From Candidatus Wildermuthbacteria bacterium RIFCSPHIGHO2_02_FULL_45_25 (GTDB lineage: Bacteria > Patescibacteriota > Minisyncoccia > Minisyncoccales > UBA10102), in the NCBI GenBank assembly GCA_001823215.1, contig MHTV01000001.1, forward strand, positions 1 through 42,204: a DNA stretch of 42,204 nucleotides. Reading direction: 5' to 3'. Position 1 is the first letter of the stretch. Every line of letters begins with the position of its first letter. A program made the position numbers and the translations under genes. The notes below the pieces were generated by a model. It was not told the origin of the DNA, did not search any database, and was given only the letters and a program-made list of their open reading frames with translations. Of the stretch, positions 7,573 to 36,910 are shown one piece after another.

Positions 7573-7573
7573 A

Positions 7574-16959: not shown

Positions 16960-17022
16960 TTTTCTATTATACCATATTTTCTTTAAGCAAAAAACTGCGC
17001 GTACGCAGTTGTTCTTTAGATA

Positions 17023-17185
17023 CTTTGAATTACGAAACAAATAACATATAAGGTTCAGAGAACGTTGGGAGCGCGACTGGCGCGAGCCCCTCACCGCAAG
17101 GTGGAAGGGGGAGCACCAGGAATTTTTCAGCAGAAACATATCCGTGTTCTCAAAACCTTGTATGTGCTGGTTTCGCAATTCAAAA
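17023..17185 (+). repeat. Palindromic intergenic element, copy A (~163 bp)
   Basis: CTTTGAATTACGAAAC...GTTTCGCAATTCAAA with ~40-bp imperfect arms; near-identical to copies at 34625 and 36716. Confidence 0.9.
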
Positions 17186-17935
17186 TTAGATATGCGTGAG
17201 CGCTTCATATCCATTCTCGATAACCGCAATGGTATCTTCAAAATGCGCGGAGAGCGAGCCGTCTTTGGTTACAAATGTTTGGCCATCTTTCGCAAGCTGC
17301 ACCTGCCAGCCGCCAAGGGTTATCATGGGCTCGATACAAATGACCATACCCTCTTTGAGTGTTTCGCCTGCATGACGTTCTCCATAATTTGGAATTTGCG
17401 GCTCCTCGTGCAGCTCCTTTCCGATGCCATGCCCGCATAACTCCCGCACAATACCGTACCCTACAGGGCCAATAGCCCGCTCAATGGTATTCCCCAAATC
17501 TCCTATGGTTACACCGGGCCGCACTTTTTTTGTCCCTACCTTGAGAGCTTTCCATGCAACCCGAAGCAAACGGGCGGCATCCGGAGAAATTTCTCCCACC
17601 GGAACCGTGCGAGCCATATCCAAATAATAACCTTTCCAAATAAGGCCAATATCCAACGTGAGAATATCCCCCGCTTGCAAGATTTTCTCGAGAGACGGAA
17701 TGGCATGGACAACTTCTTCATTAACAGAAGTACAAATGGAAGCTGGGAATCCATTATAATTTTTAAAAGCCGGCTTTGCTCCGGCTTCTCGTATCTTTCG
17801 TTCCGCGGATTGATCCAATGCTTTTGTCGTTACTCCCGGCCGAACCTCTTTTTTCAACTCCTCCATGATCTGCGCGAGCATACGTCCTCCTTCGCGCATA
17901 AGCGCGATCTCTTCTGGAATTTTGATAGGGATCAT
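17186..17935 (-). CDS. map: Methionine aminopeptidase type I
   Basis: CTSVNEEVVHAIP, GHGIG..LHEEP, IEPM, SAHFEDT. Confidence 0.96.
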   Translation of the reverse strand: MIPIKIPEEIALMREGGRMLAQIMEELKKEVRPGVTTKALDQSAERKIREAGAKPAFKNYNGFPASICTSVNEEVVHAIPSLEKILQAGDILTLDIGLIWKGYYLDMARTVPVGEISPDAARLLRVAWKALKVGTKKVRPGVTIGDLGNTIERAIGPVGYGIVRELCGHGIGKELHEEPQIPNYGERHAGETLKEGMVICIEPMITLGGWQVQLAKDGQTFVTKDGSLSAHFEDTIAVIENGYEALTHI

Positions 17936-18522
17936 TTTTCAAAAAATGAATGTACCTTTTCGAGAATCTCTTTATGCACATTCTCGATTGCCTGTTCGCC
18001 TTGGATGTGAATAAGTTTTCCTTCTGCTTGATAAAAATCAATCACAGGCATTACCTCTTTTTGATACCATCCCAATCGTTTGCGAATTGCCTGCTCTTCG
18101 TCATCATTGCGTCCGCGCGCGAGCAAGCGTTTCAAGGATTCCTGATCTGAAATATCCAAATGCAGCGCCATCGTATTGCCGGCCAGCTGATAAAATTCCA
18201 TGGTTTCGTTCAGCATATACGCTTCATACAGCTTTCGCGGGCTTCCCTCAAAAATAATTCCGGACGCGTTTTCATCTTCCCTTAAACGCTCTAACTCATG
18301 GAGCCACAGATGAAAAATGATTGGAGTTGCAACAAGCCCTCCCTTGTCAATAATTTCCGAAATTCTGCGTCCGACAAAATCATCCTGCTTTTTTCGCTCA
18401 CGCAAAAGATTGCCAGAGCTGATAATCCGAAGATTATATTTCTGCGCCAATAACTCCACTTGAGTTCCCTTTCCAGAACCAGACTTACCCAAAAATACAA
18501 GGATTTTAAAATTGTCTTTCAT
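17932..18522 (-). CDS. adk: Adenylate kinase (short, LID-less type)
   Basis: GKSGSGKGTQ, SSGNLLR, GSPR, RGRNDD; lies between secY and map. Confidence 0.88.
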   Translation of the reverse strand: MKDNFKILVFLGKSGSGKGTQVELLAQKYNLRIISSGNLLRERKKQDDFVGRRISEIIDKGGLVATPIIFHLWLHELERLREDENASGIIFEGSPRKLYEAYMLNETMEFYQLAGNTMALHLDISDQESLKRLLARGRNDDEEQAIRKRLGWYQKEVMPVIDFYQAEGKLIHIQGEQAIENVHKEILEKVHSFFEK

Positions 18523-18544
18523 AGGAAAATAAACGCTTTTCCCT

Positions 18545-19819
18545 TTAGAACTTATCGTAATCGCGCATTTCCAATTGCGCGCGCAATTGCCGCATCGTTT
18601 CCAACACCACGTTTACGATAATAAGAAGCGCAGTTCCTCCCACCAGAAAAGAGAACGCTTGAATGGCAGTTACTTTCTGCACGAGAAACGGCATTACCGC
18701 GATAAAACCGAGGAAGAACGCGCCAATAAATAAAATCCTGTTTAAAATATAAGAGATAAAATGGGCTGTGGATTGCCCGGGACGAACTCCGGGAATAAAT
18801 CCTCCCATCTTTTGAAGATTGGTCGCAATGGACTTGGGATCAAAAGTAACGGCAGTATAGAAATAGGTAAATGCCGCGACCAATACAAAATAGATAACCA
18901 AATAGAGCCAAGCTGTGGGATCCAAAGATTGGATTATTTTTCTCGCAACATCGCCAGCTACTCCGCTCGCATTTTGGAAAAATGACCCCACCATGGTGGG
19001 AAAAGTCATTAAAGATAAAGCAAAAATAATCGGAATCACTCCTGCAGGATTCAGATTGAGAGGCAAATAGGTGGAAACTCCCCCAAATACTTTATTCCCT
19101 CTCACGCGTTTGGCATAAGAAACAGCGATATTTCTTCTTGCTTGCGTTACAAATACCACGGAAGCGATAATCGCGACCGCCAGAGCCAAGAATTTTCCTA
19201 AGTTCAGTAATTCATCACCCGTACCGCCTTGCGTGTTGGTATAAAGCTGCCAAATATTTGCGGGAAAATCCGCCACAATCCCGGCAAAAATAAGTAGCGA
19301 CACCCCGTTTCCAATTCCTTTTTCCGTGATCAATTCTCCCAGCCACATGAGCAAAACGGTACCTGCGGTAATTGTCGCAAGCGTGGTTACCATGCCCAAA
19401 GGATCCATAGGAGAAATAATTCCCTGTCTCGTGAATAATGTCAGAAACGCGTATCCCTGAAGAAGCGCAAAAGGCACCGTCAGAATTCTTCCGTACTGAT
19501 TAAACTTTTGCCGGCCCGCATCGCCTTCTTCCTTGTACATCTTCTCCAATTGCGGGAAGATCATCGTAAGAAGCTGCATGATAATGGTAGCGGTAATATA
19601 AGGGCCCAAACCCAGCATCACGATCGAAAAACGTTCCCCTCCCGTGAATAAGCTCACGAGCTCAAGAAACGCGTTTCCGCCCGCGTTATCCTGAAGAACA
19701 TTGACGTTAATAACCACATTCGCCATCAAACGATACACCAAAAAAACACCGAGAACAAAAAGAATCCGATTTCGCAGGTCGTGCAACTTAAAAATTTGAA
19801 AAATGCGTTGAAGCCACAT
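18545..19819 (-). CDS. secY: Preprotein translocase SecY
   Basis: LGLGPYITATIIMQLL, GIGNGVSLLIFAGI, GGFIPGVRPG. Confidence 0.97.
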   Translation of the reverse strand: MWLQRIFQIFKLHDLRNRILFVLGVFLVYRLMANVVINVNVLQDNAGGNAFLELVSLFTGGERFSIVMLGLGPYITATIIMQLLTMIFPQLEKMYKEEGDAGRQKFNQYGRILTVPFALLQGYAFLTLFTRQGIISPMDPLGMVTTLATITAGTVLLMWLGELITEKGIGNGVSLLIFAGIVADFPANIWQLYTNTQGGTGDELLNLGKFLALAVAIIASVVFVTQARRNIAVSYAKRVRGNKVFGGVSTYLPLNLNPAGVIPIIFALSLMTFPTMVGSFFQNASGVAGDVARKIIQSLDPTAWLYLVIYFVLVAAFTYFYTAVTFDPKSIATNLQKMGGFIPGVRPGQSTAHFISYILNRILFIGAFFLGFIAVMPFLVQKVTAIQAFSFLVGGTALLIIVNVVLETMRQLRAQLEMRDYDKF

Positions 19820-19821
19820 TG

Positions 19822-20253
19822 TTATTTAATAGTACCGCCCACTGCTTCAATTTTCGTCTTCGCTCCAGCTGAAACGACACAAGATTCAATGGAAAGGGTT
19901 TTTGTTAATTTTCCTGTTCCCAATATCTTTACGGCTGGGGTTCGCTTTCCCGTGATTTTGATCAATCTTTTCTCCCGAAGCGCAGAAGGTGTAATATGCG
20001 CTCCTTTCTCGAAGTTTTTTTCTAATATGCCCACGTTCAAAGTAACTGGTTTTGCTTTCACAATACCAAATTTATATCCGCGCAATTTCGGATAACGCTT
20101 AATAAGTTCGCGAATCCGCGGCTGCATCTTTCTGCCGGAACGCGCTCCCTGCCCCTTAATCCCCCGGCCAGAATACGTACCGCGCTTTCCGCCGCGTCCG
20201 ATTCGTTTTCCCCGATGCGTTTTATGTATAGGTTGAATTTCGTGAGTCTGCAT
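19822..20253 (-). CDS. rplO: 50S ribosomal protein L15
   Basis: RIGRGGKRGTYSGRGIKGQGAR, KILGTG. Confidence 0.95.
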   Translation of the reverse strand: MQTHEIQPIHKTHRGKRIGRGGKRGTYSGRGIKGQGARSGRKMQPRIRELIKRYPKLRGYKFGIVKAKPVTLNVGILEKNFEKGAHITPSALREKRLIKITGKRTPAVKILGTGKLTKTLSIESCVVSAGAKTKIEAVGGTIK

Positions 20254-20257
20254 ACAA

Positions 20258-20854
20258 TTATTCTGAAGCTTGTGTCGTTGTATCCACCGGCTCCGCTTTC
20301 TGTTCTTCTTTTTTATCTACTTTCTCCGCTTCCTTTTCTCTTACATGAAGCTTTTTCAGAGCTTCCAAAGTTACCAGTGCATTGTTTAATTTATTATGCG
20401 TTTTGGAGATAAATTTCGCGGAAATATCCTTAATTCCAGCCAATTCACAAATGATTCTTGCGGGGCCGCCGGCTACTAAACCTCGGCCAGTCAATTGGGG
20501 CTTTAGCATTATGCGGGACGCTCCAAACTTCGCTGTAACCATATATGGAATGGTATTCCCCTGAATAGGCAACGCAATCATGCTTTTCTGCGCTTTGCGA
20601 GTTGCTTTATCCATTGCTTGGGCAACATCAGATCCCTTGGCAACTCCTACGCCTATTTTCCCTTTTCGATTCCCGGCAATTACGGTTGCGCGAAAACTAA
20701 ATCGGCGGCCTCCGGCTCGGACTCTTGTTACGCGAGCCAAATCCAAAAGCTTGGTGTCAAATTCCGATTTTATCGCAGGAGCAGATCCCCGCCGTCTGGG
20801 CGATCTTTGAGGTTGCTTGGAGGTACCAGATGATTTTTGTTTCTTGTCGTTCAT
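20258..20854 (-). CDS. rpsE: 30S ribosomal protein S5
   Basis: RVTRVRAGGRRFSFRA, GRGLVAGG; start trimmed to MNDKKQ. Confidence 0.95.
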   Translation of the reverse strand: MNDKKQKSSGTSKQPQRSPRRRGSAPAIKSEFDTKLLDLARVTRVRAGGRRFSFRATVIAGNRKGKIGVGVAKGSDVAQAMDKATRKAQKSMIALPIQGNTIPYMVTAKFGASRIMLKPQLTGRGLVAGGPARIICELAGIKDISAKFISKTHNKLNNALVTLEALKKLHVREKEAEKVDKKEEQKAEPVDTTTQASE

Positions 20855-20858
20855 ATCG

Positions 20859-21209
20859 TTAAAATGAAAGTCCGCCTTCCCGCGCACCTTCCGCTATTGC
20901 CTTTACGTTTCCGTGATACATGTACCCGCTTCGATCAAAAATTGCTTTTTCAATCTTTTTATCTTTTGCCATTTGAGCGATCTTTTTCCCCAATTCCTTT
21001 GCTCTTTCTTGGCGTTTTGCGGGAAGGGTCTCTTTAAGGTCGGAAACAGAAGCAATGACTCTCCCTTCGAGATCATCAATCAATTGCGCGTACAGATGCT
21101 TATTGGAACGAAAAACCGTCAAACGAGGTTTTATCGCTGTTCCTTGCATTTTTCCGCGAATGCGTAATTTGCGCTTCTGCCGCTGTAATTGTTTATCTTG
21201 AATATTCAT
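20859..21209 (-). CDS. rplR: 50S ribosomal protein L18
   Basis: PRLTVFRSNKHLYAQLIDD, FDRSGYMYHG. Confidence 0.96.
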   Translation of the reverse strand: MNIQDKQLQRQKRKLRIRGKMQGTAIKPRLTVFRSNKHLYAQLIDDLEGRVIASVSDLKETLPAKRQERAKELGKKIAQMAKDKKIEKAIFDRSGYMYHGNVKAIAEGAREGGLSF

Positions 21210-21215
21210 ACATTG

Positions 21216-21761
21216 CTATTTTCCGGCGCCCGCCGCTCGTTTTCCAAGTTTGCGTCGAACTACTTCGCCCTCGTATCGAATACCTTTTCCTTTATATGGT
21301 TCCACAGGACGTATTGCTCGAATACGAGCGGCAATCTCCCCTACTTTCTCTTTATCAATACCGCTCACGGTAATTATATTCTTCTCTACCGAAAAGGCAA
21401 TAAACTCCGGAGCTTGCATCACGATAGGATGACTGAATCCCACAGTCATATTGAGCACCTTCCCTTCAGTGGAAGCGCGATATCCCACTCCTTCAAGTTC
21501 TAGTTTCTTTACATAGCCCTGCGTTACTCCAATAATCATGTTTGCGAGCAGTGTTCGAGTAAGACCCCATAATTCCTTTCCTTTCTTGGAATTCGTATGA
21601 GGCGTTACTGTAAGAACATTCTCTTCATGGATGATTCCCATCTCATGGGGAAAAACGCGGCACAATTCGCCCTTTGGCCCTTTCAACTGGACCGTTTGCC
21701 CCTCAATTTGCACTTGCACGCCTGTCGGTATTTCAATTGGTTTTTTTCCTATTCGAGACAT
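21216..21761 (-). CDS. rplF: 50S ribosomal protein L6
   Basis: MSRIGKKPI, EPYKGKGIRY. Confidence 0.97.
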   Translation of the reverse strand: MSRIGKKPIEIPTGVQVQIEGQTVQLKGPKGELCRVFPHEMGIIHEENVLTVTPHTNSKKGKELWGLTRTLLANMIIGVTQGYVKKLELEGVGYRASTEGKVLNMTVGFSHPIVMQAPEFIAFSVEKNIITVSGIDKEKVGEIAARIRAIRPVEPYKGKGIRYEGEVVRRKLGKRAAGAGK

Positions 21762-21791
21762 ACCACGTGTAAAAAAATTACCGCTTTCTTT

Positions 21792-22181
21792 TTACCACAC
21801 CTCGCAAAGCACTTCTCCTCCCACATTACTTTTCTTTGCGTCTTCATTTGTCATAATCCCCTTTGAAGTCGAAATAATTGTCACTCCATACCCGCCTCGA
21901 ACTCTCTTTATCTCGTTGGCGGGTTGGTAAATGCGTTGGCCCGGCTTGGAGATGCGCTTTACTCCCGAAATTCTTGGGGCTCCTTCTTCATATTTCAATT
22001 TCAGTTCAATCAGCTTGCGAGTTTTCTTCCCCTTGAAATCAACCGCTTTAATAAATCCTTTGCGCTCTAAGATTTTCGCAATGGCATATTTCATTCTGGA
22101 AAATGGAAGCTCTACCGTCTCTTTATTGACGGCTTGCGCATTACGGATTCTTGTAAGCATGTCTGAAATTGGATCTATCAT
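21792..22181 (-). CDS. rpsH: 30S ribosomal protein S8
   Basis: DPISDMLTRIRNA, RISKPGQRIY, GGEVLCEVW. Confidence 0.97.
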   Translation of the reverse strand: MIDPISDMLTRIRNAQAVNKETVELPFSRMKYAIAKILERKGFIKAVDFKGKKTRKLIELKLKYEEGAPRISGVKRISKPGQRIYQPANEIKRVRGGYGVTIISTSKGIMTNEDAKKSNVGGEVLCEVW

Positions 22182-22196
22182 AAAATTCGTGTGAAA

Positions 22197-22382
22197 TTAC
22201 CAGCTCGATTTCGTTATTCCAGGGATTAAACATTTATTTGCCATTTCCCGAAAACAAATCCTGCATAAGTTAAAATCTCCTAAATATCCGCGCTTTCGTC
22301 CGCATCGAAAACAACGATTTGTTTTCCGCGTTGAAAATTTTGGTTTTTTGCTTGCTTTTGATATTTGAGCTTTACTCGCCAT
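22197..22382 (-). CDS. rpsN: 30S ribosomal protein S14 (short Zn-binding type)
   Basis: 61 aa; RCFRCGR...LCRICFRE...PGITKSSW. Confidence 0.96.
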
Positions 22383-22392
22383 ACTCTATGTT

Positions 22393-22959
22393 CTATTTCT
22401 TATCTTTTATTTCTTTCAATGGGAATCCCAATTGCTTCAATAATTCCAGTCCTTCTGCCTTATTGTGAGCACTTGTGGTAACCACCACCTGCAATCCAAA
22501 GATATTGCGCACTTTTTCAGGAGAAATTTCCGGGAAGAAAATATGTTCTTTGATACCGATTGATAAATTTCCTTGCTGATCAATCGCTGTGGCGTTCAAA
22601 CCCTGAAAGTCGCGCGAACGAGGCAACGCAATAAGAATCAATCTCTCCAAAAAGTCGTACATGCGTTTCCCTCGAAGCGTTATCTTTGCTCCCACTGGAG
22701 ATCCTTGCCGCAATTTAAATCCCGCGATGGATTTTTTTGCTTTCGTTACCACGGCCTTCTGTCCGCAAATTCTGCTCAAGTCATCCACAATGGCTTCAAT
22801 AGTTTTTTTCTGATCATCTCCTGTTTTTCCCGCAACCAAACGCGCAAACCCGGTATTCACCACCACGCTCTTCAAACGAGGAATCGCGTTCCGATTTTCA
22901 TATCCGAATTTCTCAATCAAGGCAGGCATTGCTTGTGTTGTATACATTTCCTGTAGCAT
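22393..22959 (-). CDS. rplE: 50S ribosomal protein L5
   Basis: AKKSIAGFKLRQG, LPRSRDFQG, FPEI. Confidence 0.96.
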   Translation of the reverse strand: MLQEMYTTQAMPALIEKFGYENRNAIPRLKSVVVNTGFARLVAGKTGDDQKKTIEAIVDDLSRICGQKAVVTKAKKSIAGFKLRQGSPVGAKITLRGKRMYDFLERLILIALPRSRDFQGLNATAIDQQGNLSIGIKEHIFFPEISPEKVRNIFGLQVVVTTSAHNKAEGLELLKQLGFPLKEIKDKK

Positions 22960-22961
22960 AT

Positions 22962-23267
22962 CTATACTTGGGCTCCGCATTTTTTGCAGATTCGATATTT
23001 ATTCTCTTCTTCCACCCGATAACCAACTCGCACAGCTTTTCCGCATTTTTCACAAATAAGCTTCACGTTCGAAATAGCAAAGGCCGCTGGCTTTTCCACG
23101 ATTTGTCCTTTTTGTCCTTGCCGGCGGGGCTTTGTATGGCGTTTTCGCATATTCATTCCTTCAACCACAACTCTTTGCTCTTTTGGAAGAGCTTGCAATA
23201 CTTTGCCTTTTCTGCCTCTATCTTTCCCGGCAATCACTAATACGTTGTCGCCTTTCTTGATTTTCAT
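22962..23267 (-). CDS. rplX: 50S ribosomal protein L24
   Basis: MKIKKGDNVLVIAGKDRG KOW motif. Confidence 0.96.
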   Translation of the reverse strand: MKIKKGDNVLVIAGKDRGRKGKVLQALPKEQRVVVEGMNMRKRHTKPRRQGQKGQIVEKPAAFAISNVKLICEKCGKAVRVGYRVEEENKYRICKKCGAQV

Positions 23268-23298
23268 AACTTTTCTGCTGTATTACCTGCAAGAGTTC

Positions 23299-23667
23299 CT
23301 AAATAACCTCCGGAGCCAATGCCGCAATTCTGGTATATCCTTTTTCTCGAATTTCTCTTGGAATAGGCCCAAAGATACGTCCACCTTTCGGCTCTTTATC
23401 TTTTTCCAAAATCACTGCCGCATTTTCGTCAAATCTGATATATGATCCGTCTGCCCGGCGGAATTCCTTTTTCTGGCGCACCACAACCGCTTTTACCACA
23501 TCATGCTTTTTGACCAGACGGCGGGGTTCGGCATCTTTTACCGCAGCCACGATAATATCGCCAATCTGCGCATAGCGATGCTTGGATCCTCCAAGTATCT
23601 GAAAGCATTGGATCACTTTTGCTCCCGTGTTATCTGCAACTACTAATTTTGTTTGATGCTGGATCAT
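23299..23667 (-). CDS. rplN: 50S ribosomal protein L14
   Basis: [26 protein letters not shown]. Confidence 0.97.
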
Positions 23668-23690
23668 ACAATAAGCTGTCAGCTTATGGC

Positions 23691-23924
23691 TTAACGCTTT
23701 CCTACAACTAGCCATCTCTTATCTTTGCTTATGGGTCTCGTCTCTTCGATGATTACTTTATCGCCTGCTTTGTACTCTCCTTTTTCATCATGCGCCTTGT
23801 ATTTTTTGTGAGACCGAAATCTTCGCAAATACTTGGGATGTTCCTTCATTGTTTCCACCTGAACCACTACGGTCTTCTGCATTTTATCTGATACCACAAT
23901 TCCGGTAAGTTGTCTTTTGGGCAT
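23691..23924 (-). CDS. rpsQ: 30S ribosomal protein S17
   Basis: [25 protein letters not shown]. Confidence 0.97.
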
Positions 23925-23932
23925 AAATATAT

Positions 23933-24121
23933 CTATTTACTGATCATGCGCATCGCAGTTAAAATCTGTGCGATGTTTTTTCTCCCAGTTCGCAATTCTT
24001 TCACGCTCGCATTCTTCCCGGCAGCAACGTCAAACCGAAACTGCTGCATTTTACCTTTTTGCTCTGCAAGCATTTTCTCTAAATCTTCTCGCGATTTCTT
24101 TTGTAAATCTGTCATTTTCAT
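23933..24121 (-). CDS. rpmC: 50S ribosomal protein L29
   Basis: RKNIAQILT; lies between rplP and rpsQ. Confidence 0.9.
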
Positions 24122-24128
24122 ATCACAT

Positions 24129-24536
24129 TTATTCCGATTTGACAAATTTGGTCTTTATCGGCAATTTTGCCGCGGCTTTGCGCAACGCATCTCTTGCCTG
24201 ATCTTCCTTAATTCCTTCCAATTCAAATAAAATTCTTCCTGGTTTTAATGAAACCACATAATGATCTACCGCTCCCTTTCCGCCGCCCATAGGAGTTTCA
24301 GCTCCCTTCTTGGTAACAGGTTTGTCCGGGAATACCCGAATCCAAAGCCGTCCTCCTTTGCGAAGATATCTAATAATCGCTCTTCTCGCAGCTTCAATCT
24401 GACGGGCGCTCACCCATTTTGTCCCTTCGCATTTGAGGCCATAGGTTCCAAAAGAAAGTTCCGTTCCTCTTGTTTCCAAACCCTTTGCATGGCCCTTCAT
24501 CTGTTTTCGATATTTTACTTTTTTGGGAGTCAACAT
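24129..24536 (-). CDS. rplP: 50S ribosomal protein L16
   Basis: QIEAARRA, RVFPDKP, MGGGKG. Confidence 0.97.
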   Translation of the reverse strand: MLTPKKVKYRKQMKGHAKGLETRGTELSFGTYGLKCEGTKWVSARQIEAARRAIIRYLRKGGRLWIRVFPDKPVTKKGAETPMGGGKGAVDHYVVSLKPGRILFELEGIKEDQARDALRKAAAKLPIKTKFVKSE

Positions 24537-24541
24537 AGCTT

Positions 24542-25201
24542 TTATTCAAATTTTTCTCCGCGATAAATCCATACTTTTACTCCAATAACTCCGTATGTCG
24601 TATGCGCTTCCTCCACCGCGTAGTCAATATCCGCGCGAATAGTTTGCAATGGCAGTCGTCCTACGCGCAATTTTTCTCTTCGTGCGATTTCAGCTCCATC
24701 CAAACGTCCCGATATCTCAATCTTTGCTCCTTGAATACCTTTATTCAGCATGATTTTTCCTATTCCCTGTTTGAGCACTCTTCGAAAGGGCATACGCCGC
24801 TCAATCTGCTGCACAACCCATTGCGCTGAAAGCGTCGCTGATTCCCACGGATTTTTAATTTCTCGAATTTCCATTTTCAGTTGCGTTTTTTTCTTGGACA
24901 CGCTCCCTGCGGGCCCAAAAAGCTTTCGCTCTAATCCCTTGCGTAATTCTTCAATACCGGCTCCCCCGCGGCCGATAATCAATCCCGGTCGCGCGCTTGA
25001 AATAATCACGTTTACTCTTCCGGAAGATCGTTCAATTTCAACTTTCTCTACCCCCATATCTTTTAGCTTCTTCCCTATAAACTGACGAATCAAAAAGTCT
25101 TCCCGCAAAAGGAATGCGTAGTTTTTCTTCGAAAACCAGCGCGATCGCCAGTCTTCCATCTTATGCAATCTGAATGATAATGGGTGAACTTTATGAGACA
25201 T
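24542..25201 (-). CDS. rpsC: 30S ribosomal protein S3
   Basis: KVHP..FRL, RPGLIIGRGG, SGRLDGAEIAR, GVKVWIY. Confidence 0.97.
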   Translation of the reverse strand: MSHKVHPLSFRLHKMEDWRSRWFSKKNYAFLLREDFLIRQFIGKKLKDMGVEKVEIERSSGRVNVIISSARPGLIIGRGGAGIEELRKGLERKLFGPAGSVSKKKTQLKMEIREIKNPWESATLSAQWVVQQIERRMPFRRVLKQGIGKIMLNKGIQGAKIEISGRLDGAEIARREKLRVGRLPLQTIRADIDYAVEEAHTTYGVIGVKVWIYRGEKFE

Positions 25202-25217
25202 ACGAGGATATTAATCT

Positions 25218-25763: not shown

Positions 25764-25782
25764 ACCGTTTCAAAAATCTGAT

Positions 25783-26112: not shown

Positions 26113-26124
26113 AGATATCAAAAT

Positions 26125-27344: not shown

Positions 27345-27356
27345 GCAAATTCGATA

Positions 27357-27998: not shown

Positions 27999-28018
27999 AA
28001 ATCGTAATATCCAATGGT

Positions 28019-28609: not shown

Positions 28610-28785
28610 GAATCAATAAATCTTCACAGTTTTCTATACAAAAACCCCTGCTAACCCAGGGGCATCCAAATCCTCGTTTTCAGGTTAGTCTATACCTTAC
28701 ATTGTCGAAGCAGACAATGACTTTTTCGCATCGCAAAAGATATAATACTCTTATTCTCAATTGTCAAAATAAACAGCTAACATTC
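28610..28785 (-). promoter_or_regulatory. Putative promoter and structured leader/attenuator upstream of rplC
   Basis: TTGACA box, two short hairpins, then a CCCCTG/CAGGGG stem followed by a T5 run on the minus strand. Confidence 0.45.
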
Positions 28786-29142
28786 CTACATCTTCATTTC
28801 AATATCCACTCCCGCCGGCAGATTCAAGCTTGTTAATGCTTCGATGCTTTTAGGAGTCGGATTCACGATATCAATCAAGCGTTTATGCGTACGCATCTCA
28901 AACTGCTCTCTGGCATCCTTATGCACAAAGGATGATCTATTCACCGTATATTTTCGGATTTCAGTCGGAAGCGGCACAGGCCCGATCACTTCTCCTCCCT
29001 GCCGGATTACGGTATCAATAATTTGACGACAGCTTGTGTCAATCACCTTATGATCATACGCGCTAATTTTAATACGCAACCTTGCCTGCGTATTTGCGGC
29101 TTTCGATGCTCCTGTTGTTGTGCTTGCGGTTTTAGCTGGCAT
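28786..29142 (-). CDS. rpsJ: 30S ribosomal protein S10
   Basis: [27 protein letters not shown]. Confidence 0.97.
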
Positions 29143-29196
29143 ATACATCCACAATGAAGAGCGAAAGGCGGTGAAGCCCGTCGCTCTTCAAAATTT

Positions 29197-30390
29197 CTAA
29201 GCAATTATCTTGGTGACAACTCCTGCTCCAACTGTTTTTCCACCTTCACGGATGGCAAATCTCTGCTGATCCTCCATGGCAATCGGAACCAAAAGTTTTA
29301 CTTTCAAATTCACGGTATCTCCTGGCATTACCATTTCTGCGCCTTCCGGCAATTCAACCTCACCGGTTACATCAGTGGTTCGGAAATAGAATTGGGGTTT
29401 ATATCCCTTAAAGAAAGGCGTATGACGTCCTCCTTCTTCTTTAGACAAGATATACACTTCAGTTTCAAAGTCGGTATGTGGCGTTACCGATCCCGGTTTT
29501 ACCAAAACCTGTCCACGTTCCACATCTTCTTTTTTCAATCCGCGAAGCAAAATTCCAACGTTGTCGCCGGCACGGCCTTCATCGAGAAATTTTTTGAACA
29601 TTTCCACGCTTACCGCAACTGTCTTAGCAGTTGGCTTAATTCCCACCATTTCCACTTCATCGTTCGGCTTGATTACGCCGCGTTCAATACGTCCGGTTGC
29701 TACGGTACCGCGTCCTTCGATGGAGAACACGTCTTCGATTGCCATCAAGAACGGCTTATCGGTCTCGCGAACGGGTTCTGCAATATTGGTATCCACCGCG
29801 TTCATTAAATCAAGAATTGGCTTTACAGCTTCGTCGTCAACAGATTTCGCTTCTAATGCCTTCAACGCAGAACCTCGAATAACCGGTACGGTATCTCCAG
29901 CATAGTTATATTTGGTGAGAAGTTCCCGAACTTCGGATTCTACCAAATCAATAATTTCAGGATCGTCCACCATATCGCATTTGTTCAAGAAAACAACGAT
30001 ATATGGAAGGCCCACCTGACGCGCTAAAAGAATATGCTCTCTCGTTTGAGGCATGGGCCCGTCTGGAGCAGATACCACAAGAATGGCGCCATCCATTTGA
30101 GCAGCTCCCGTAATCATGTTTTTGATGTAGTCGGCATGCCCGGGAGCATCAATATGCGCGTAGTGCCGTTTCTCTGTTTCGTATTCCAAGTGAGAAAGAG
30201 AAATAGTGATTCCTCTCTGCTTCTCTTCTGGAGCAGAGTCAATCTGATCCACGCTTTTTTCGCTTACCTTCATTCCCTTCAATTTCAACACATGAAGAAT
30301 AGCCGCGGAAAGAGTGGTTTTCCCGTGGTCTACATGACCAATTGTTCCGACGTTGACATGAGGCTTGGAGCGCTCAAATTTTTCTGCCAT
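29197..30390 (-). CDS. tuf: Elongation factor Tu
   Basis: [28 protein letters not shown]. Confidence 0.99.
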
Positions 30391-30498
30391 AGTGTTCGTC
30401 TTATGATTTATAATTTGTTACACAATAAATTATGGGAAAAATAAACTCTCAAATTCACACAAATGTATTATACGCTTCGCTGAAAAAAAGTCAACTTT

Positions 30499-30762
30499 CT
30501 ACACCGGCAAGTCGTCAATCGTCAGATCTTCTTCCCTCCCTCCACGCTGGCGTTCTGGCAAAGCCCCAACGGGACGATCTCCCACAGACCGGTTATATAG
30601 AGGAGAAGACTCTTCCTTACGCGGCATACGCGCTTCCTGTTTGATCGGAGTCTTCTGATACTCATCAAAAGACATTACAATCAAAGTCGGTTTTTCCTGT
30701 TCTACAATCACAATCTTTCCGCCCTCCCTATCTAAAATTTCTTTGAGTTCGCGAATATTCAT
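30499..30762 (-). CDS. Hypothetical protein with Phd-like N-terminus and acidic DDLPV tail
   Basis: ~88-aa ORF directly after fusA; GGKIVIVEQEKPTLIVMSFDEY. Confidence 0.65.
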   Translation of the reverse strand: MNIRELKEILDREGGKIVIVEQEKPTLIVMSFDEYQKTPIKQEARMPRKEESSPLYNRSVGDRPVGALPERQRGGREEDLTIDDLPV

Positions 30763-30779
30763 ATTCAATCTTTCCTTTA

Positions 30780-32885
30780 CTATTTTGTTCTTCCCGCGAC
30801 AATCTCTTGCGTGATATTCGCAGGCACCGGATCGTATCTGTCGAATTCCATCGTAAATGTTCCTCGGCCCTCTGTCAATGAACGCAAATTCGTTGCATAC
30901 CCAAACATTTGGGCAAGAGGCACTTTTACATGAATGACTTTCATTTGAATGCGGTCTTCAGTTTCTTCAATCCGTCCGCGGCGGGAAGACAAATCGCCAA
31001 TAACGTCTCCCAAGAAATCCGGAGGGATAACAACTTCCATTTTCATAATGGGTTCGAGCAAAACGATTCCTGATTTTCGCGCACCTTCCTGCAAGGCAGA
31101 AGAAGCCGCAATTTTAAACGCCATTTCAGACGAGTCCACCTCGTGATAAGAACCATCGAATAACGTTACCTCCACATCAACCATGGGATACCCGGCTAAC
31201 ACTCCTTTGGCCATTGCTTCTTTGGTTCCCTTTTCCACGGCGGGAATATATTCTCTCGGAATCGCTCCTCCTTTCACTTCATCTACAAATTTGAAGCCGG
31301 ATCCGCGCTCCAATGGCTTCAAGCGAAGCAACACATGTCCATATTGTCCGCGTCCTCCGGACTGGCGAACATACTTGGATTCCGCCTGGCCATCTTTTGT
31401 AATAGTTTCTTTGTACGCCACTTGCGGCTGACCCACGTTTGCTTCCACGCCAAATTCGCGTTTCATGCGATCCACAATAATATCCAAGTGCAATTCTCCC
31501 ATTCCCGAGATAAGCGTTTCCCCTGTTTCAAAATCACTCGTTACTTTAAATGTGGGATCTTCATCGCAAAGACGCTTGAGGGAAAGGCCCATTTTTTCCT
31601 GGTCTGCTTTGGTTTTAGGTTCAATTCGAATAGAGATAACCGGCTCCGGGAAGGTAATTTGTTCCAAAAGAATCGGATTATTTTCCGCGCATAAGGTATG
31701 CCCGGTGCTTGTTCCTTTCAAGCCGACGGTAGCAGCAATATCCCCTGCGAATAACTCATCCACCTCTTCGCGTTCAGCTGCGTGCATACGCAAGATACGG
31801 CTGATTCGCTCTTTTTCTCCGTTTGTCGCATTCAACACATAAGAACCCTTCTGCAACATCCCTGAATACACGCGAAAATAGGTCAGCGTTCCCACATACG
31901 GGTCAGACGCCACCTTAAACGCAAGCGCGGAAAAAGGATCGCCATCAGATGGCTTGCGAGTCATTACTTCTCCGGTTTTCAGATTTGTCCCCTGAATTGC
32001 TTCCACGTCCACCGGGCTTGGCAAGAAATCCACCACACCATCAAGCATCAATTGAACCCCTTTATTCTTTAACGATGAGCCGCAAAATACCGGCACCAAA
32101 GACCCTTCCAATGAGGCCTTTCGAAGAACTTTTTTATATTCTTCGTTGCTTACGGTCTTTCCTTCCAAATACGCAGTCATGAGTGTTTCATCTTCCGCGG
32201 CGATTTTCTCAATAAGTTTCTCCCGCCATTCTTTTGCCTTTTGTTGAAACTCCGCAGGAATGTCTTCCCTCACGATTGTCTGTCCAAAGTCGCCATCGAA
32301 ACGCACCGCCTTCATATCCAATAAATCAATCACGCCTCTCATCTGCTCTTCCTCGCCGAGAGGAATTTGCAATGCAACGGCATTCGGTGTAAGTTTCTGC
32401 CAGATAGAACCTAAACTTTTTTCAAAGGATGCTCCCAAACGATCAAGCTTATTGATAAAACAAATGCGAGGCACTTTGAATTTATCAGCTTGCCGCCACA
32501 CTGTTTCAGATTGCGGTTCAACTCCGGCAACTCCGTCAAAAAGCACAATCGCGCCATCCAGCACGCGAAGAGAGCGCTGCACTTCTGCCGTAAAGTCAAT
32601 ATGGCCAGGGGTATCAATGAGGTTAAAACGATATTTGTTTTCTGGAGATACGGGAAGATATGTAGGATTCCAGAAACAAGTAGTCGCGGCCGCAGTAATG
32701 GTAATCCCCCTCTCCCGCTCTTGCACCATCCAGTCCATAATCGCGGCTCCCTCATGAACTTCTCCTATTTTATGAGAAATTCCGGTGTAAAATAAAATGC
32801 GCTCGCTTGTCGTGGTTTTGCCAGCGTCAATATGCGCGATAATTCCGATATTTCGGTATTTTTCGATAGGAAAAGCTCGAGCCAT
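30780..32885 (-). CDS. fusA: Elongation factor G
   Basis: [27 protein letters not shown]. Confidence 0.99.
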
Positions 32886-32974
32886 AAAATAATAGTAATC
32901 TACTCACAACCGGCGAGACATTTCTCTTAGTTCTCTTTAGCTATTCACCCAACCGGATTCGTCTGTATGTGCTC

Positions 32975-33442
32975 TTACCATGCGAAATGAGCAAACGCGC
33001 GGTTCGCTTCTGCCATGCGATGAGTATCTTCTTTCTTTTTAACGGCAGAACCTTCATTTTTATACGCCGCAATTAATTCTTCCGCTAATTTCGCTTGCAT
33101 CGCGCGCCCCTTCTTCGCACGGGCGGCATTCAAAATCCAGCGAGAAGCCAAGCCGATTTTCCGATTTCCCTTTACCTCCACCGGTACTTGATATGTAGCT
33201 CCTCCCACACGCTTGGAACGGACTTCCAGCAAAGGAGCCGCATTTTCGATTGCTTTTTCAAAAACTTCCAAGGGATTTTGCTTTGTTTCTTTTTCGATAA
33301 TTGAAAAAGCGCCGTACACGATTTTTCTTGCTACGGATTTTTTCCCCTTGCGCATCACGTAATTCGTGAATTTCGAAACCAGCTCGCTATTATACAAAGC
33401 GTCTGGATCTACCGGATGCCGTGAAATTTTTCCTCGTGCCAT
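32975..33442 (-). CDS. rpsG: 30S ribosomal protein S7
   Basis: [23 protein letters not shown]. Confidence 0.98.
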
Positions 33443-33462
33443 AGTGAGCTTTCAATAATTCT

Positions 33463-33876
33463 TTATTTTTTCTCTCGTTTCGTTCCGTACTTCGATCGTT
33501 CCTGTTTTCGTCCTTCCACACCAGAGGCATCAAGGACCCCCCGGACAATATGGTATCTGACGCCAGGTAGGTCTTTGACTCTTCCTCCTCGAATCATCAC
33601 AACCGAGTGCTCTTGAAGTTTATGTCCTACCCCTGGGATATATGCCGTTACTTCCATGCCGTTGCTCAAGCGCACTCTCGCTACTTTCCGCAAAGCAGAG
33701 TTCGGCTTTTTGGGTGTCATAGTAAATACCCGCAAACATACGCCTCTCTTGAAAGGAGCTTCGTAGCGGACAATACGATTTTTTTGCGCGCGAAACCCAA
33801 ATGCTAAAGCAGGAGTTTTATCCTTCTTCTTTACTCGAGTCCGTCCTTTCTTTATAAGTTGTCGAATTGTTGGCAT
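33463..33876 (-). CDS. rpsL: 30S ribosomal protein S12
   Basis: [21 protein letters not shown]. Confidence 0.98.
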
Positions 33877-33942
33877 AAGAAAATACTGTAAACTCTATCA
33901 CAACGTATAATCTATCAAATAAAAAAAACAATGTCAACGCTC

Positions 33943-34584
33943 TCATGGCACACCGACAAGAAAGTCCACGAGAGGGCGCTCTATTCCTTTGAAAAAAATA
34001 TCCAGCACAGCGCCATTCAAAACCAAATTCAGAAGGATAAGCCCCATCACCAGGAACATACCATACTGCAGGAGAAATACTTTCATGTGCTCAAGAGATG
34101 TTGGGAGAAACGTAAAAAGGATATGAGAGCCATCAAGCGGCGGCAGAGGAAGAAGATTAAACAGACCTAGCGTCACATTCACCAAAACGATCCAGACAAG
34201 GATTTGGACAAAATTCTCGTTCACCGCATCCAATTGAAGAGCAATCCTGGTAAAAGCGGCAAACACAATCGCAATCGCGAAATTGGAAGCAGGCCCCGCA
34301 ATGCTCACGAGGGCCGAAGCATATTTGCCGCGTAAATTAGAAGGATTCACCGGAACTGGCTTTGCCCACCCAAAGAATCCTCCAGTGGCAAAGAAAAATG
34401 TAAGAGGCACAATAAATGATCCAACTACATCTACATGAGAAATTGGATTCAGAGTAAGTCTTCCAGCATTCCGTGCGGTAGGATCCCCAAGCATATTCGC
34501 CACCAAACCATGAGACACCTCGTGAAGCACAACCGAAGGCAAAAGAAGAATAAGGAGAATAAAAAATTCAAAAAAATCCGGCAT
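33943..34584 (-). CDS. Site-2 protease family (M50) membrane metalloprotease
   Basis: HEVSH, GWAKPVP, AGPASN, FNLLPLPPLDG. Confidence 0.93.
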   Translation of the reverse strand: MPDFFEFFILLILLLPSVVLHEVSHGLVANMLGDPTARNAGRLTLNPISHVDVVGSFIVPLTFFFATGGFFGWAKPVPVNPSNLRGKYASALVSIAGPASNFAIAIVFAAFTRIALQLDAVNENFVQILVWIVLVNVTLGLFNLLPLPPLDGSHILFTFLPTSLEHMKVFLLQYGMFLVMGLILLNLVLNGAVLDIFFKGIERPLVDFLVGVP

Positions 34585-34624
34585 TTGTTTACTATATCAT
34601 GTTTCTCTGAAGAGCTCAAACATA

Positions 34625-34786
34625 CTTTGAATTACGAAACCAGCACATACAAGGTTTGGAGAACATTGGGAGCGCGACTGGCGCGAGCCCCTCACCGTAA
34701 GGTGATAGGGGGAGCACTAGAAATTTTTCAGCAGAAACATATCCGTATTCTCAAAACCTTGTATGTGCTAGTTTCGTAATTCAAAG
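34625..34786 (+). repeat. Palindromic intergenic element, copy B (162 bp)
   Basis: CTTTGAATTACGAAACCAGCACATACAAGG...CCTTGTATGTGCTAGTTTCGTAATTCAAAG. Confidence 0.9.
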
Positions 34787-34847
34787 AAACATAGGTATGA
34801 AGCCATCCGATTTTGACTTTTGCTTTTTATCTGCTACACTGTAACGT

Positions 34848-35036
34848 ATGGCACAAATATGTGAAAAATGTGGAAAAGGAATTACACGCGTATGGCGCCA
34901 CGTAAAATTACGAGGGAAATACAATCCCACGATTAAACGTGTTCAAAAACCTAATCTTCAGCGGATGAAATTAGCCACTGGTGAAAGGATCCATGCCTGC
35001 ACCAAATGCATGAAAGCGGTTGGAAAAGCGAGATAA
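34848..35036 (+). CDS. rpmB: 50S ribosomal protein L28
   Basis: CEKCGK, KRVQKPNLQ, CTKCMK; 62 aa. Confidence 0.88.
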   Translation: MAQICEKCGKGITRVWRHVKLRGKYNPTIKRVQKPNLQRMKLATGERIHACTKCMKAVGKAR

Positions 35037-35088
35037 TCCCTTGCTTCTCCTTGTCTATTGCTGCAAGTTCTTCCAAAGTCTGCAAACA

Positions 35089-35159
35089 CGGGCCATCGTA
35101 TAACGGCAGTACATGCCCTTGGGGTGGGCAAGGCGGCAGTTCAATTCTGCCTGGCCCGA
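35089..35159 (+). tRNA. tRNA-Pro (GGG), CCA not encoded
   Basis: Acceptor stem CGGGCCA/TGGCCCG, anticodon arm TGCCC-TTGGGGT-GGGCA, T arm GGCAG-TTCAATT-CTGCC. Confidence 0.93.
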
Positions 35160-35201
35160 CTATGTATCCTCAAGTGAAATAATTCTCATCGCATTCTTTA
35201 G

Positions 35202-35241
35202 AACAGAAAAACCAGCTTTACCAAAAGCTGGTTTTTCTGTT
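35202..35241. terminator. Bidirectional terminator between tRNA-Pro and the HU gene
   Basis: 18-bp IR AACAGAAAAACCAGCTTT/AAAGCTGGTTTTTCTGTT between convergent genes. Confidence 0.75.
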
Positions 35242-35256
35242 GAAAAGCAACACCGT

Positions 35257-35529
35257 CTATCTTACTGCGTCTTTTAAGGATTTTCCCGGCTTAAATTTGG
35301 GCACTGTCATCGCAGGAATATTGATCTTAGCTCCCGTGCTTGGATTTACTCCCTGCCGTGCCTTGCGATTGGAAACTTGAAACGTGCCAAATCCCGTTAA
35401 TGCTACAGAGTTTCCTTGCTTCAAAGCACCTTCAATGGCGTCTATGAATGCGGCCAATGCATCCCCAGCCGCCTTTTTTGAAATCCCGGCCTTTGAAGAC
35501 ATCGCCTCTAAAAGCTGCTCTTTATTCAT
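35257..35529 (-). CDS. hup: HU family DNA-binding protein
   Basis: MNKEQL, GFGTF, RQGVNPSTG, PKFKPGKSLKDAV. Confidence 0.96.
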   Translation of the reverse strand: MNKEQLLEAMSSKAGISKKAAGDALAAFIDAIEGALKQGNSVALTGFGTFQVSNRKARQGVNPSTGAKINIPAMTVPKFKPGKSLKDAVR

Positions 35530-35672
35530 ATACAAGTATGCTTTCTTTGTTCTTTCTCTTGACCTTTAAACTGCTTTGATAAGCGTGTGGATTTGCGAGA
35601 GTCGCAAGCACGCCGCGCAAGTTCCCTTTTATTATACGCATCCCACTACGCAACGCAAGCTTTTGTATGGTC

Positions 35673-36083
35673 TCATGAGCTTGGAACAATTTTTACGTAT
35701 GATCCGGATACCCAGCCATCTTTTCCTCCGGGAAGTATAATATGATACCAGCCGTTTTTGACTTCCGTAAATTCGTATTGCTCTTTGGGAAGGACTTGAC
35801 CCGTTCGCGATCCCTGCACTGACGGGGCATTGCGCACATTCAAGTACCCTGTTGAGTTGCTCAAGACCTCAATCTTAGGCAAAGCAGATTTCGCAGGACT
35901 TCCCGTGGGTAACGCAAAATTCGTCTGACTGGGGGAAACACCCGGCGAAAGAGCAAGCCCAGTAAGTGAAGAGTTATAAATAATTACTGTTCTTGTCGCT
36001 TGAAAAGCGAAAAAAACGCCTACTGCTCCTGCCAGTGCCAGAAAAACCCACACGAGAATTTTACCGTTCATGCGTTGTTCCAT
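35673..36083 (-). CDS. Membrane-anchored SH3b-domain protein
   Basis: N-terminal hydrophobic helix; LNVRNAPS...NGWYHI...GWVSGSYV. Confidence 0.8.
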   Translation of the reverse strand: MEQRMNGKILVWVFLALAGAVGVFFAFQATRTVIIYNSSLTGLALSPGVSPSQTNFALPTGSPAKSALPKIEVLSNSTGYLNVRNAPSVQGSRTGQVLPKEQYEFTEVKNGWYHIILPGGKDGWVSGSYVKIVPSS

Positions 36084-36154
36084 AAAATTATACAATAATT
36101 GACAAAAGTGAAAGGCGGAGTCAAAATAGAGAAAATTTCATACTTAATTTCATT

Positions 36155-36460
36155 ATGCGTTTTCAAATCTCTCTTGGCAACCAAACACTTTCAAACTTTA
36201 TGCGATCTTGCGGATATGCTCCTGAAGGAACAGACCCTAAAACAGGTGAGCTGAAATTTTATCGTTCAATCAGAGGAAGAGATTACCCCAAATTCCATAT
36301 TTACTGTAAAGAATCAGCTCATCAATCCTCTGCTTCTCTTAACTTGCATCTCGATCAAAAACAACCAACCTACCGAGGATCCTCTGCGCACAGCGGAGAA
36401 TATGACGGGGATATTATTGAACAGGAAGCTGGCCGGATTCAATCTGCCTCGCGCTTATAA
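36155..36460 (+). CDS. Hypothetical protein
   Basis: 101-aa ORF with ATG start and an upstream promoter-like sequence; no family recognised. Confidence 0.7.
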   Translation: MRFQISLGNQTLSNFMRSCGYAPEGTDPKTGELKFYRSIRGRDYPKFHIYCKESAHQSSASLNLHLDQKQPTYRGSSAHSGEYDGDIIEQEAGRIQSASRL

Positions 36461-36502
36461 TTATTATACTCCACTTCTGTAAATTCCAAAACGGACGCGT
36501 TA

Positions 36503-36537
36503 AATAAAAACAGCCCTTCGAAAAGGGCGGTTTTTAT
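36503..36537. terminator. Bidirectional terminator (6S RNA / hypothetical gene)
   Basis: AATAAAAACAGCCCTT-CGAA-AAGGGCGGTTTTTATT. Confidence 0.7.
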
Positions 36538-36668
36538 TGCCCAACAATCCCTTATAAGGATCCCGGAAAGTTCCAGGTGGGTGCCGTAGCTGTTCGCCAC
36601 GGCGAACAGATCATATCCGGCTCCCATTCAAAACGTAATGCGGACCTTATAATGGGATCGTCTGGGCA
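36538..36668 (-). ncRNA. ssrS: 6S RNA (compact, ~130 nt)
   Basis: Rod-like fold with paired ends (GCCCAgACGATCCCaTTATAAGG / CCTTATAAGGGATTGTTGGGC). Carries TGGGAGCC and GGCACCCACCTG motifs as in Firmicutes 6S RNA, a TTGACG-18-TATAAT promoter upstream and a terminator downstream. Confidence 0.75.
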
Positions 36669-36715
36669 AATGTATTATACCGCACAACAACAATGAGCGT
36701 CAAAAAGTTATAAAA

Positions 36716-36877
36716 CTTTGAATTAGGAAACTACTACACACAAGGTTTTGAGAACGTTGGGAGCGCGACTGGCGCGAGCCCCTCACCACGAGGTGGAAGG
36801 GGGAGCACCAGGAATGTTTCAGCAGAAAAATATCCGTGTTCTCCAAACCTTGTGTGTAGTAGTTTCCTAATTCAAAG
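36716..36877 (+). repeat. Palindromic intergenic element, copy C (162 bp)
   Basis: CTTTGAATTAGGAAACTACTACACACAAGG...CCTTGTGTGTAGTAGTTTCCTAATTCAAAG. Confidence 0.9.
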
Positions 36878-36910
36878 TTCGTAATTCACTATCCTAGAAC
36901 ATTGATAGAC

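Follow-up and report, generated by a model that had tools for sequence, protein, structure and literature searches.

Small palindromic elements of Patescibacteria with a conserved folded core, variable arms and in-frame copies in housekeeping genes

We analyzed a stretch of 42,204 nt (contig MHTV01000001.1 of Candidatus Wildermuthbacteria), termed the window in the following. Its genes, which include a ribosomal protein operon, EF-Tu, EF-G, SecY and a Cas12a locus, are mostly located on the minus strand, and the GC skew is negative across the whole window. Between the genes lies a family of palindromic elements, represented by three long copies (c1, c2, and c3), one short form and pieces of element ends (Table 1). 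Four core copies and two end remnants are found within 25 kb, and the pattern that defines the core was matched four times, compared to 0.00 matches expected from 100 shuffles. [quoted passage not shown] The family is previously undescribed.

A preliminary description of the window had listed three full copies, a variant beginning at 16095 and a solo arm at 40240, all intergenic and in the same orientation. The repeat search returned the three full copies as 83-87% alike (reference 34624-34786; 17023-17185, 83%; 36715-36877, 87%), and the solo arm was recovered. The variant was also present but starts at 16092. The five pieces all point the same way, and none overlaps the accepted open reading frames (ORFs). 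A 12-nt end fragment next to c3 had gone unmentioned. The inverted arms of c2 (34625-34663/34748-34786) are 39 nt and 95% complementary, those of c3 (36714-36755/36838-36879) 42 nt and 98% complementary, and those of the short form (16092-16132/16188-16228) 41 nt and 98% complementary. The preliminary description had the arms differ between copies and stay complementary within a copy, and the pairs it quoted were correct. The arms of c3 are fully compensated relative to c2, and those of c2 contain a single C/A mismatch. The left arm of c1 is degenerate; the inner arm of this copy retains 17/22 Watson-Crick pairs. The 3' part of the core is common to the short form and c1-c3 (a repeat family of four copies, 44 nt). 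The multi-hairpin core with its GCAA, GTAA, and ACGA loops was found as described; the loops belong to a fourth hairpin that is added in the three long copies, and are carried by c1, c2, and c3, respectively. The element has no ORF of its own beyond read-through.

Table 1. Positions in the window of the palindromic elements, their parts and the type V-A CRISPR-Cas locus.
Feature	Position	Strand	Remarks
c1, long copy	17023-17185	+	163 bp; left arm degenerate
c2, long copy	34625-34786	+	162 bp; found by repeat search and by inverted-repeat search
c3, long copy	36716-36877	+	162 bp; arms perfectly compensated; target-site duplication absent (3/7)
Short form	16092-16228	+	137 bp; arms of 41 bp, unrelated to those of c1-c3; core a three-way junction lacking the extra hairpin
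End of solo right arm	40240-40259	+	20 nt; 95% identity to the right end of c3
Right-end fragment (TTCGTAATTCAC)	36878-36889	+	12 nt; abuts c3
Left target-site duplication of c1, TTAGATA	17016-17022	.	right copy 17186-17192; 7/7, chance 1e-4
Left target-site duplication of c2, AAACATA	34618-34624	.	right copy 34787-34793; 7/7
P3 hairpin of the core (GAGCAC..ATATCCGTATTC)	34712-34750	+	same module at 16153-16191, 17111-17149, and 36803-36841
Extra tetraloop hairpin between P2 and P3	34688-34711	+	only in the three long copies of the window
Cas12a ORF	9166-13338	-	Pfam RuvC_1, REC1, NUC, and Cpf1 PI
Cas4	7574-8113	-	
Cas1	6595-7572	-	
Cas2	6317-6598	-	
CRISPR array	4652-6047	-	23 repeats of 36 nt, spacers only 25-27 nt; degenerate repeat at 6251-6288

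In the window the elements are inserted where they do little damage. On one side of c1 is the stop codon (17186, minus strand) of a methionine aminopeptidase gene, and on the other a terminator-like hairpin (17010-16993). c2 separates the divergent promoter-like sites of an M50 peptidase gene (minus) and the L28 gene (plus), and c3 has the terminator of the NDK gene on one side and a promoter-like site on the other. The short form is flanked by a GT2 gene (stop codon 16231) and a galT-like gene, and the solo arm by the convergent beta-CASP RNase and UppP genes.

The family extends beyond the window. An exact scan of species-representative genomes for the core pattern gave 21 loci. One of these (L020, labelled Bacteroidetes) was discarded as a chance match; it has no arms and no 5' motif, and was missed by the covariance model described below. 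The remaining 20 loci come from 13 assemblies, almost all labelled Patescibacteria: Vogelbacteria, Zambryskibacteria, Taylorbacteria, members of the Parcubacteria/Patescibacteria group, five Saccharibacteria, and one assembly labelled Gammaproteobacteria (CAZVCF01). The last label is odd beside those of the other hosts; CAZVCF01 contributes six loci, with the same TTGAATTACGAAA termini as the window. All 20 loci are short forms that consist of an arm, the junction YTTGNGA, a small hairpin, GAG, the P3 hairpin and the second arm, and in one of them (L012) a hairpin of about 90 nt takes the place of P2. Their arms are 17-44 bp, near-perfect, and unrelated between genomes.

The exact pattern forces the 3' GA and, in part, the identity of P3 among the loci; the arms, the P2 loop and the 5' junction TTGNGA are unforced. 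A covariance model built from the 20 short forms recovered all 24 pattern-bearing elements, with 104 bits for the short form of the window. It also added a diverged second copy (L004:3259-3365, 34 bits), and the family is therefore wider than the search pattern. The only other match was weak (E 0.12), on the reverse strand, and overlapped the known element of L005.

The preliminary description had seen no clear target duplication, and this did not hold. c1 and c2 are each flanked by a perfect 7-bp target-site duplication located immediately outside NNTTGAATTACGAAA inverted termini, which are common to the long copies of the window and the CAZVCF01 copies. The right copy of the c1 duplication contains the stop codon of the upstream methionine aminopeptidase gene. 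Random pairs of 7-mers in the window match at all seven positions with a frequency of 1e-4. We applied the same end definition to the nine elements of the window and the fetched loci that are bounded by TTGAATTACGAAA termini. The duplication was 7/7 in three, 6/7 in one, 5/7 in one, and at most 3 in four. Because 7-bp duplications are far above chance, the long copies were probably inserted across a 7-bp staggered cut, and a transposase supplied in trans may have made this cut. The elements are short (137-163 bp), non-coding and present in several copies (four in the window, six loci in CAZVCF01). The long form behaves as a MITE, with inverted termini, a 7-bp duplication and safe landing sites.

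Two further arrangements of termini were observed. At L021:1209-1351 a 143-bp element has the TTGAATTACGAAA termini around a different palindromic interior, which starts with CATTGCGAG, and no 7-bp duplication; this suggests that termini and junction core are separable modules. A second inverted repeat (GGTTCAGAATAT...) encloses the element at L007:1560-1800 and in L008, both from CAZVCF01; this genome thus has at least two palindromic repeat families.

No gene for mobility was found close to the elements. The preliminary description had noted that the window lacks a transposase, and this holds for its 58 ORFs (non-overlapping, at least 60 aa), among which Pfam searches found no transposase, HUH enzyme, RAYT, TnpB or reverse transcriptase. 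The 89 ORFs that flank the 20 loci within 2 kb are ordinary housekeeping genes, with no mobility gene and no recurrent partner among them, and none encodes a HUH enzyme, RAYT, TnpB or reverse transcriptase. The search for a linked HUH/RAYT, IS200/605 or reverse transcriptase gene that had been proposed was hence negative among these 89 flanking and 58 window ORFs. Genes for Avd-like 23S rRNA intervening-sequence proteins lie about 0.3-0.7 kb from the element in two of the 20 loci (L001:1349-1699 and L018:2707-3075), which may be chance.

In agreement with the view of the preliminary description that the family is unnamed, no Rfam family matched. At the gathering score the whole window gave tRNA-Pro only, and at E<=10 the elements gave only models of long-hairpin miRNAs and Transposase-2 RNA (11.7 bits compared to a gathering score of 42.7). 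c2 had no blastn match in plasmid and phage collections, and the translated element no Pfam or NCBIfam family. A full-text literature search found no published description of such an element and none of its peptide. A review on MITEs (PMC10969869) has no word starting with 'candidate'.

The elements share a common anatomy. A long near-perfect stem (P1), with arms of 17-44 bp that vary in sequence from one genome or subfamily to another, encloses a three-way junction made of YTTGNGA, P2 (4 bp with the loop GRC(N)G), GAG, and P3. P3 consists of CAC, a GA bulge, GGA, AUUUUUC, the loop AGCA, GAAAAAU, a bulged A, UCC, and GUG. The dinucleotide GA stands before and after P2 in 20/20 aligned short forms, the 3' one being forced by the search pattern. 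Relative to shuffled sequences, the fold energy of the whole element was -78.3 kcal/mol on the plus strand (z -11.0) and -82.4 kcal/mol on the minus strand (z -13.5), while the cores alone reached z values of only -1.4 to -3.2. Resemblances to the hammerhead and to domain 5 of group II introns, seen by eye, were dropped, as no model matched and the bulge lies in the wrong strand.

The assignment as a structured element was strengthened by covariation in P1, P2, and the apex of P3. When the proposed structure was imposed on the 20 short forms, 85.9% of the cells were paired compared to 70.3% after shuffling (0/500 shuffles reached the observed value) and 36-58% when the partners were slid. Changes on both sides of a pair were found for 16/20 pairs of P1, 4/4 of P2, and 2/13 of P3, the latter being the two apical pairs. 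The codons that correspond to the P3 apex provided a second check in the 109 insert-bearing proteins described below: 104 were compensated (S..E 94, F..K 7, and L..R 3), four were uncompensated, and one was spurious. Covariation in DNA together with this codon check indicates that a single-strand hairpin is maintained. Complementary arms and covariation of P2 and P3 may reflect a single-stranded hairpin stage (single-stranded DNA or RNA) that matters for spread or persistence, and arm-to-arm conversion could help to keep the arms complementary.

The dyads P2 and P3 could alternatively form a binding site on double-stranded DNA, i.e. an operator- or centromere-like site that works independently of orientation. 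The tolerance of both orientations (see below) and the clustering of the window copies within 25 kb beside the ribosomal protein operon agree with such a site. Compensatory changes in the dyads would, however, destroy a sequence-specific site, the variability of P2 weakens the idea further, and target duplications and empty sites show insertion. We therefore consider it highly improbable.

Many short forms are flanked by direct repeats of a different kind. In L011, L015, L017, L019, and other loci the hairpin has CGAG on both sides, or CGAGCGAG in the case of L011, L015, and L017. In L011 and L017, which come from one assembly, the repeat unit runs about 40 nt further to the left. The core itself holds CGAG three times. 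We rejected the CGAG and CGAGCGAG flanks as target copies, since they are too alike between loci.

The elements also show a bias in orientation. Fifteen of the 24 elements are intragenic or have co-directional flanking genes, the flanking genes of eight are divergent or convergent, and for L012 only one flank is on the contig. The written strand was antisense to the genes in 13/15 cases and sense in two (L001 and L005). As L017 and L019 represent the same syntenic site in two assemblies, counting them once gives 12/14. GC skew follows gene direction here, and a bias related to transcription can therefore not be separated from one related to replication.

REP/REPIN-RAYT and IS200/605-derived elements form hairpins, show compensatory changes in their stems and are linked to HUH genes, and the preliminary description had considered a REP/REPIN-like mobilization by a HUH enzyme. 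In such an element the hairpin would be the recognition structure on single-stranded DNA, and CGAG the tetranucleotide for cleavage or targeting. The covariation of the hairpins, the CGAG or CGAGCGAG repeats that flank a unit of about 94 nt in many loci, and an orientation bias that accompanies GC skew would fit this explanation. On the other hand, the long form has terminal inverted repeats with 7-bp duplications, a combination that is not known from IS200/605- and RAYT-type elements. No Y1/HUH, RAYT or TnpB gene was found among the 89 + 58 ORFs, and the GC skew is inseparable from gene direction. The new family shares hairpins and compensatory stem changes with these systems and differs by its target duplications and by the lack of a HUH gene among these ORFs. 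We consider mobilization by a HUH enzyme very unlikely.

In-frame insertion into housekeeping proteins across the phylum had no counterpart in the preliminary description. Elsewhere in the phylum the inserts sit in loops and linkers of housekeeping enzymes. The L002 element lies inside a dihydrouridine synthase (Dus) gene and the L015 element inside a gene for an S-adenosylmethionine-dependent methyltransferase, and both ORFs read through the element in the same reverse-strand frame. Both intragenic copies seen at the DNA level (2/2) have a length that is a multiple of three and are free of stop codons. The empty sites in relatives that had been called for were found for the methyltransferase and for Dus. 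Five methyltransferase orthologues (P0006, P0007, P0009, P0011, and P0013), 76-86% identical to the L015 protein, lack the insert of about 26 residues at the exact point. In the same alignment of 17 proteins five other methyltransferases have a recognizable or decayed insert and one a shorter, unrecognizable insert. An AlphaFold model of the L015 methyltransferase was of moderate quality, with a mean predicted local distance difference test score (pLDDT) of 68.7 and a predicted template modelling score of 0.70. In this model the insert (residues 84-108) is predicted with pLDDT <50 and no secondary structure, in a surface loop that joins a helix to a strand of the Rossmann fold.

We searched longer proteins with profiles of the element translation, leaving out the one frame that holds a stop codon, and scored 8000 candidates. 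The profile of the first frame matched 109 proteins at E<=0.1, of which 99 have a Pfam family, 19 families in all, and 10 have none. The most frequent hosts were PheT (50), class-V aminotransferase (cysteine desulfurase; 16), Dus (5), YqeY-like proteins (4), and RsmE (3). Leucyl-type and arginyl-tRNA synthetase, MnmA, Mur ligase, TPM-domain, ComF-like, and methyltransferase proteins were found twice each. ComEC, a TraG-like protein, MiaA, uracil- and methyladenine-DNA glycosylases, an integrase and one further family occurred once. A second open frame of the same strand matched 166 of the 8000 candidates. MnmA accounts for at least 36 of the 120 matches listed, which also include Dus, TsaD, KsgA, TruB, SpoU, Tgt, Fmt, and ArgRS as well as UvrB, UvrC, UvrD-like helicases, RNase HII, adenylate kinase, phosphomannomutase, and ComEC. 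The use of two frames argues against selection on the peptide. For one frame of the opposite strand (plus orientation) 62 representatives were obtained, mostly short ORFs, a count that is not comparable as a ratio with 109 and 166 because the library differs. Nine of the 19 longest had a Pfam family: PheT, Dus, RsmE twice, RNase HII, a cysteine desulfurase fragment, a GIY-YIG protein, and two pilins.

By raw tally the hosts are rich in aminoacyl-tRNA synthetases and tRNA- or rRNA-modifying enzymes (PheT, ArgRS, the leucyl-type synthetase, MnmA, Dus, TsaD, TruB, KsgA, RsmE, SpoU, Tgt, Fmt, MiaA, and cysteine desulfurase). DNA repair enzymes are also frequent among the matches.

In PheT a single site is used, just before the C-terminal anticodon-binding domain; P0126, P0176, and P0224 have the element in one orientation and P0390 has it in the other. 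In Dus the element is found at two distinct sites, and among nine orthologues each site is occupied in some and vacant in the rest. Site A holds the common orientation in either frame; at site B, P0330 and P0347 have the common orientation and P0401 has the opposite one. Both orientations at one site are most simply explained if the core inverts between the inverted arms, with independent insertions as the alternative. The core would accordingly be able to flip between its arms.

With in-frame, stop-free inserts in unrelated conserved genes and empty sites in orthologues, the whole family behaves like RPEs, i.e. as in-frame read-through inserts in housekeeping proteins. Intragenic copies are probably translated rather than removed. 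An element that is intron-like or bypassed by the ribosome, the core of which must stay intact in essential genes, would explain conservation in place in PheT (see below) and the direct repeats that flank the hairpin at some loci. It is difficult to reconcile with the two intragenic copies, both stop-free and a multiple of three, with the use of two reading frames and both orientations, and with the lack of a match to a ribozyme or intron family in Rfam, and is in our opinion extremely unlikely.

Several observations weigh against a MITE- and RPE-like mobile element as the sole explanation. No parent insertion sequence with matching ends or transposase was found among the 58 window ORFs, the 89 flanking ORFs and the plasmid and phage collections. 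The short forms of other genomes have no termini in common, as their arms share no sequence, and no clear target-site duplication, and the CGAG or CGAGCGAG repeats that flank many of them are unexplained. The identity of P3 among loci is partly forced because the search pattern was exact. Cut-and-paste movement on double-stranded DNA would not need covarying internal hairpins. The antisense bias belongs here, as does the apparent excess of tRNA- and rRNA-related hosts, which is unexplained for a purely selfish neutral insert. Finally, among six PheT proteins (15 pairs) the 21-residue core was 67-90% identical compared to 50-68% outside the insert, a comparison biased by the choice of hits by profile match. 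Conservation of the PheT core beyond the neutral expectation implies either that the core is under constraint where it sits or that conversion from other copies renews it. In one PheT lineage three adjacent residues were changed with the pairing of the P3 apex kept.

Alternatively, the core could be a functional structured RNA, such as a module for protein binding or processing, with the palindromic element as no more than its vehicle of spread and with copies kept in place by selection on the host or the message. A ribozyme, a retro-mobilized RNA or an RNase III module, which the preliminary description had considered, would be further candidates. Covariation in P2 and P3, the conservation of the junction TTGNGA although it is unforced by the search pattern, a core more conserved than PheT itself, an orientation bias relative to transcription (13/15) and the many hosts that are tRNA- or rRNA-modifying enzymes or aminoacyl-tRNA synthetases all agree with this. 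To judge from its sequence, the GA on either side of P2 may form tandem sheared G-A pairs, as in a kink-turn. However, both orientations occur at the same PheT and Dus sites, and c2 and c3 are expected to be little transcribed, given their position between promoters or behind a terminator. The arm mismatches show no strand preference (29 G-T vs. 20 A-C), a difference that is not decisive for the strand. The cores alone fold poorly, no Rfam family matches, and the inserts decay in some methyltransferase orthologues. On balance we find such an RNA unlikely. We also raise, as a tentative and somewhat doubtful proposal, that the conserved junction is a working single-stranded module (RNA or single-stranded DNA) read by a dedicated protein of Patescibacteria. 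If so, it would represent either a new structure-guided movement of DNA, in which the enzyme recognizes the fold rather than the ends, or a domesticated RNA element under purifying selection inside PheT, MnmA, and Dus.

The MITE- and RPE-like reading can be compared with known repeats. RPEs, according to the review (PMC10969869), are palindromic repeats of about 100-150 bp in a reduced genome, often inserted in frame in unrelated housekeeping genes and read through as a conserved peptide. The new family is alike in these respects, and no transposase is known for either. It belongs to another phylum, no sequence relation was found (with no direct comparison to RPE sequences), and its core is conserved and common to many lineages while the arms are free. 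Part of the family furthermore has inverted termini and 7-bp duplications, and a single site can hold the element in either orientation.

Correia elements of Neisseria and other MITEs share terminal inverted repeats, target duplication, lack of coding capacity and multiple copies with the new family, which differs by a duplication of 7 bp and by the lack of a parent insertion sequence in our searches. Typical MITEs keep their termini while the interior drifts, and the short forms reverse this. The inverted repeats are sites of RNase III cleavage in Correia transcripts, and inversion of the element is possible (PMC10969869). The same review describes ERIC (enterobacterial repetitive intergenic consensus) as an imperfect palindrome that is strongly conserved between genera and located mostly in transcribed intergenic DNA, occasionally within genes (PMC10969869). 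ERIC is similar in size and also imperfectly palindromic; no sequence relation was seen, and the new family differs by its numerous intragenic in-frame copies and by a subset with clear target duplications.

Selfish DNA is unexpected in Patescibacteria because their genomes are very small. For a single frame alone, one small element is found within the reading frames of at least 19 families defined by Pfam, and many of the host families are aminoacyl-tRNA synthetases, tRNA- or rRNA-modifying enzymes and repair enzymes. The phenomenon described in Rickettsia is thereby reproduced in an unrelated lineage with reduced genomes. What is new is that the folded core is deeply conserved and the arms change freely; in an ordinary MITE it is the other way round. 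The element explains odd inserts of 25-40 aa and spurious small ORFs in annotations of Patescibacteria genomes, and could serve as a marker for insertion polymorphism. If the core is functional, it would be a new RNA or single-stranded DNA motif of a poorly known phylum.

The remaining observations concern other features of the window. The type V-A CRISPR-Cas locus occupies 4652-13338 on the minus strand (Table 1), and its 22 spacers gave no match to the elements or the fetched loci at up to three mismatches. A MazE-like/ParE-like pair of small genes (8185-8702) lies between cas4 and cas12a, and a defence-type cluster at the left end (3-3420) contains a type I/III restriction helicase (ResIII, HSDR_N), a RadC-like gene and a Fic/DOC gene. 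The NDK ORF (36961-37605) encodes 214 aa and is matched by the Pfam NDK model in two stretches, which implies a long internal insert; this insert is unlike the peptide of the element. Long hairpins unrelated to the element are also present in the source genome, as at 35196-35247, just after tRNA-Pro (35089-35160), where a 24-bp hairpin with a 4-nt loop is 92% complementary.

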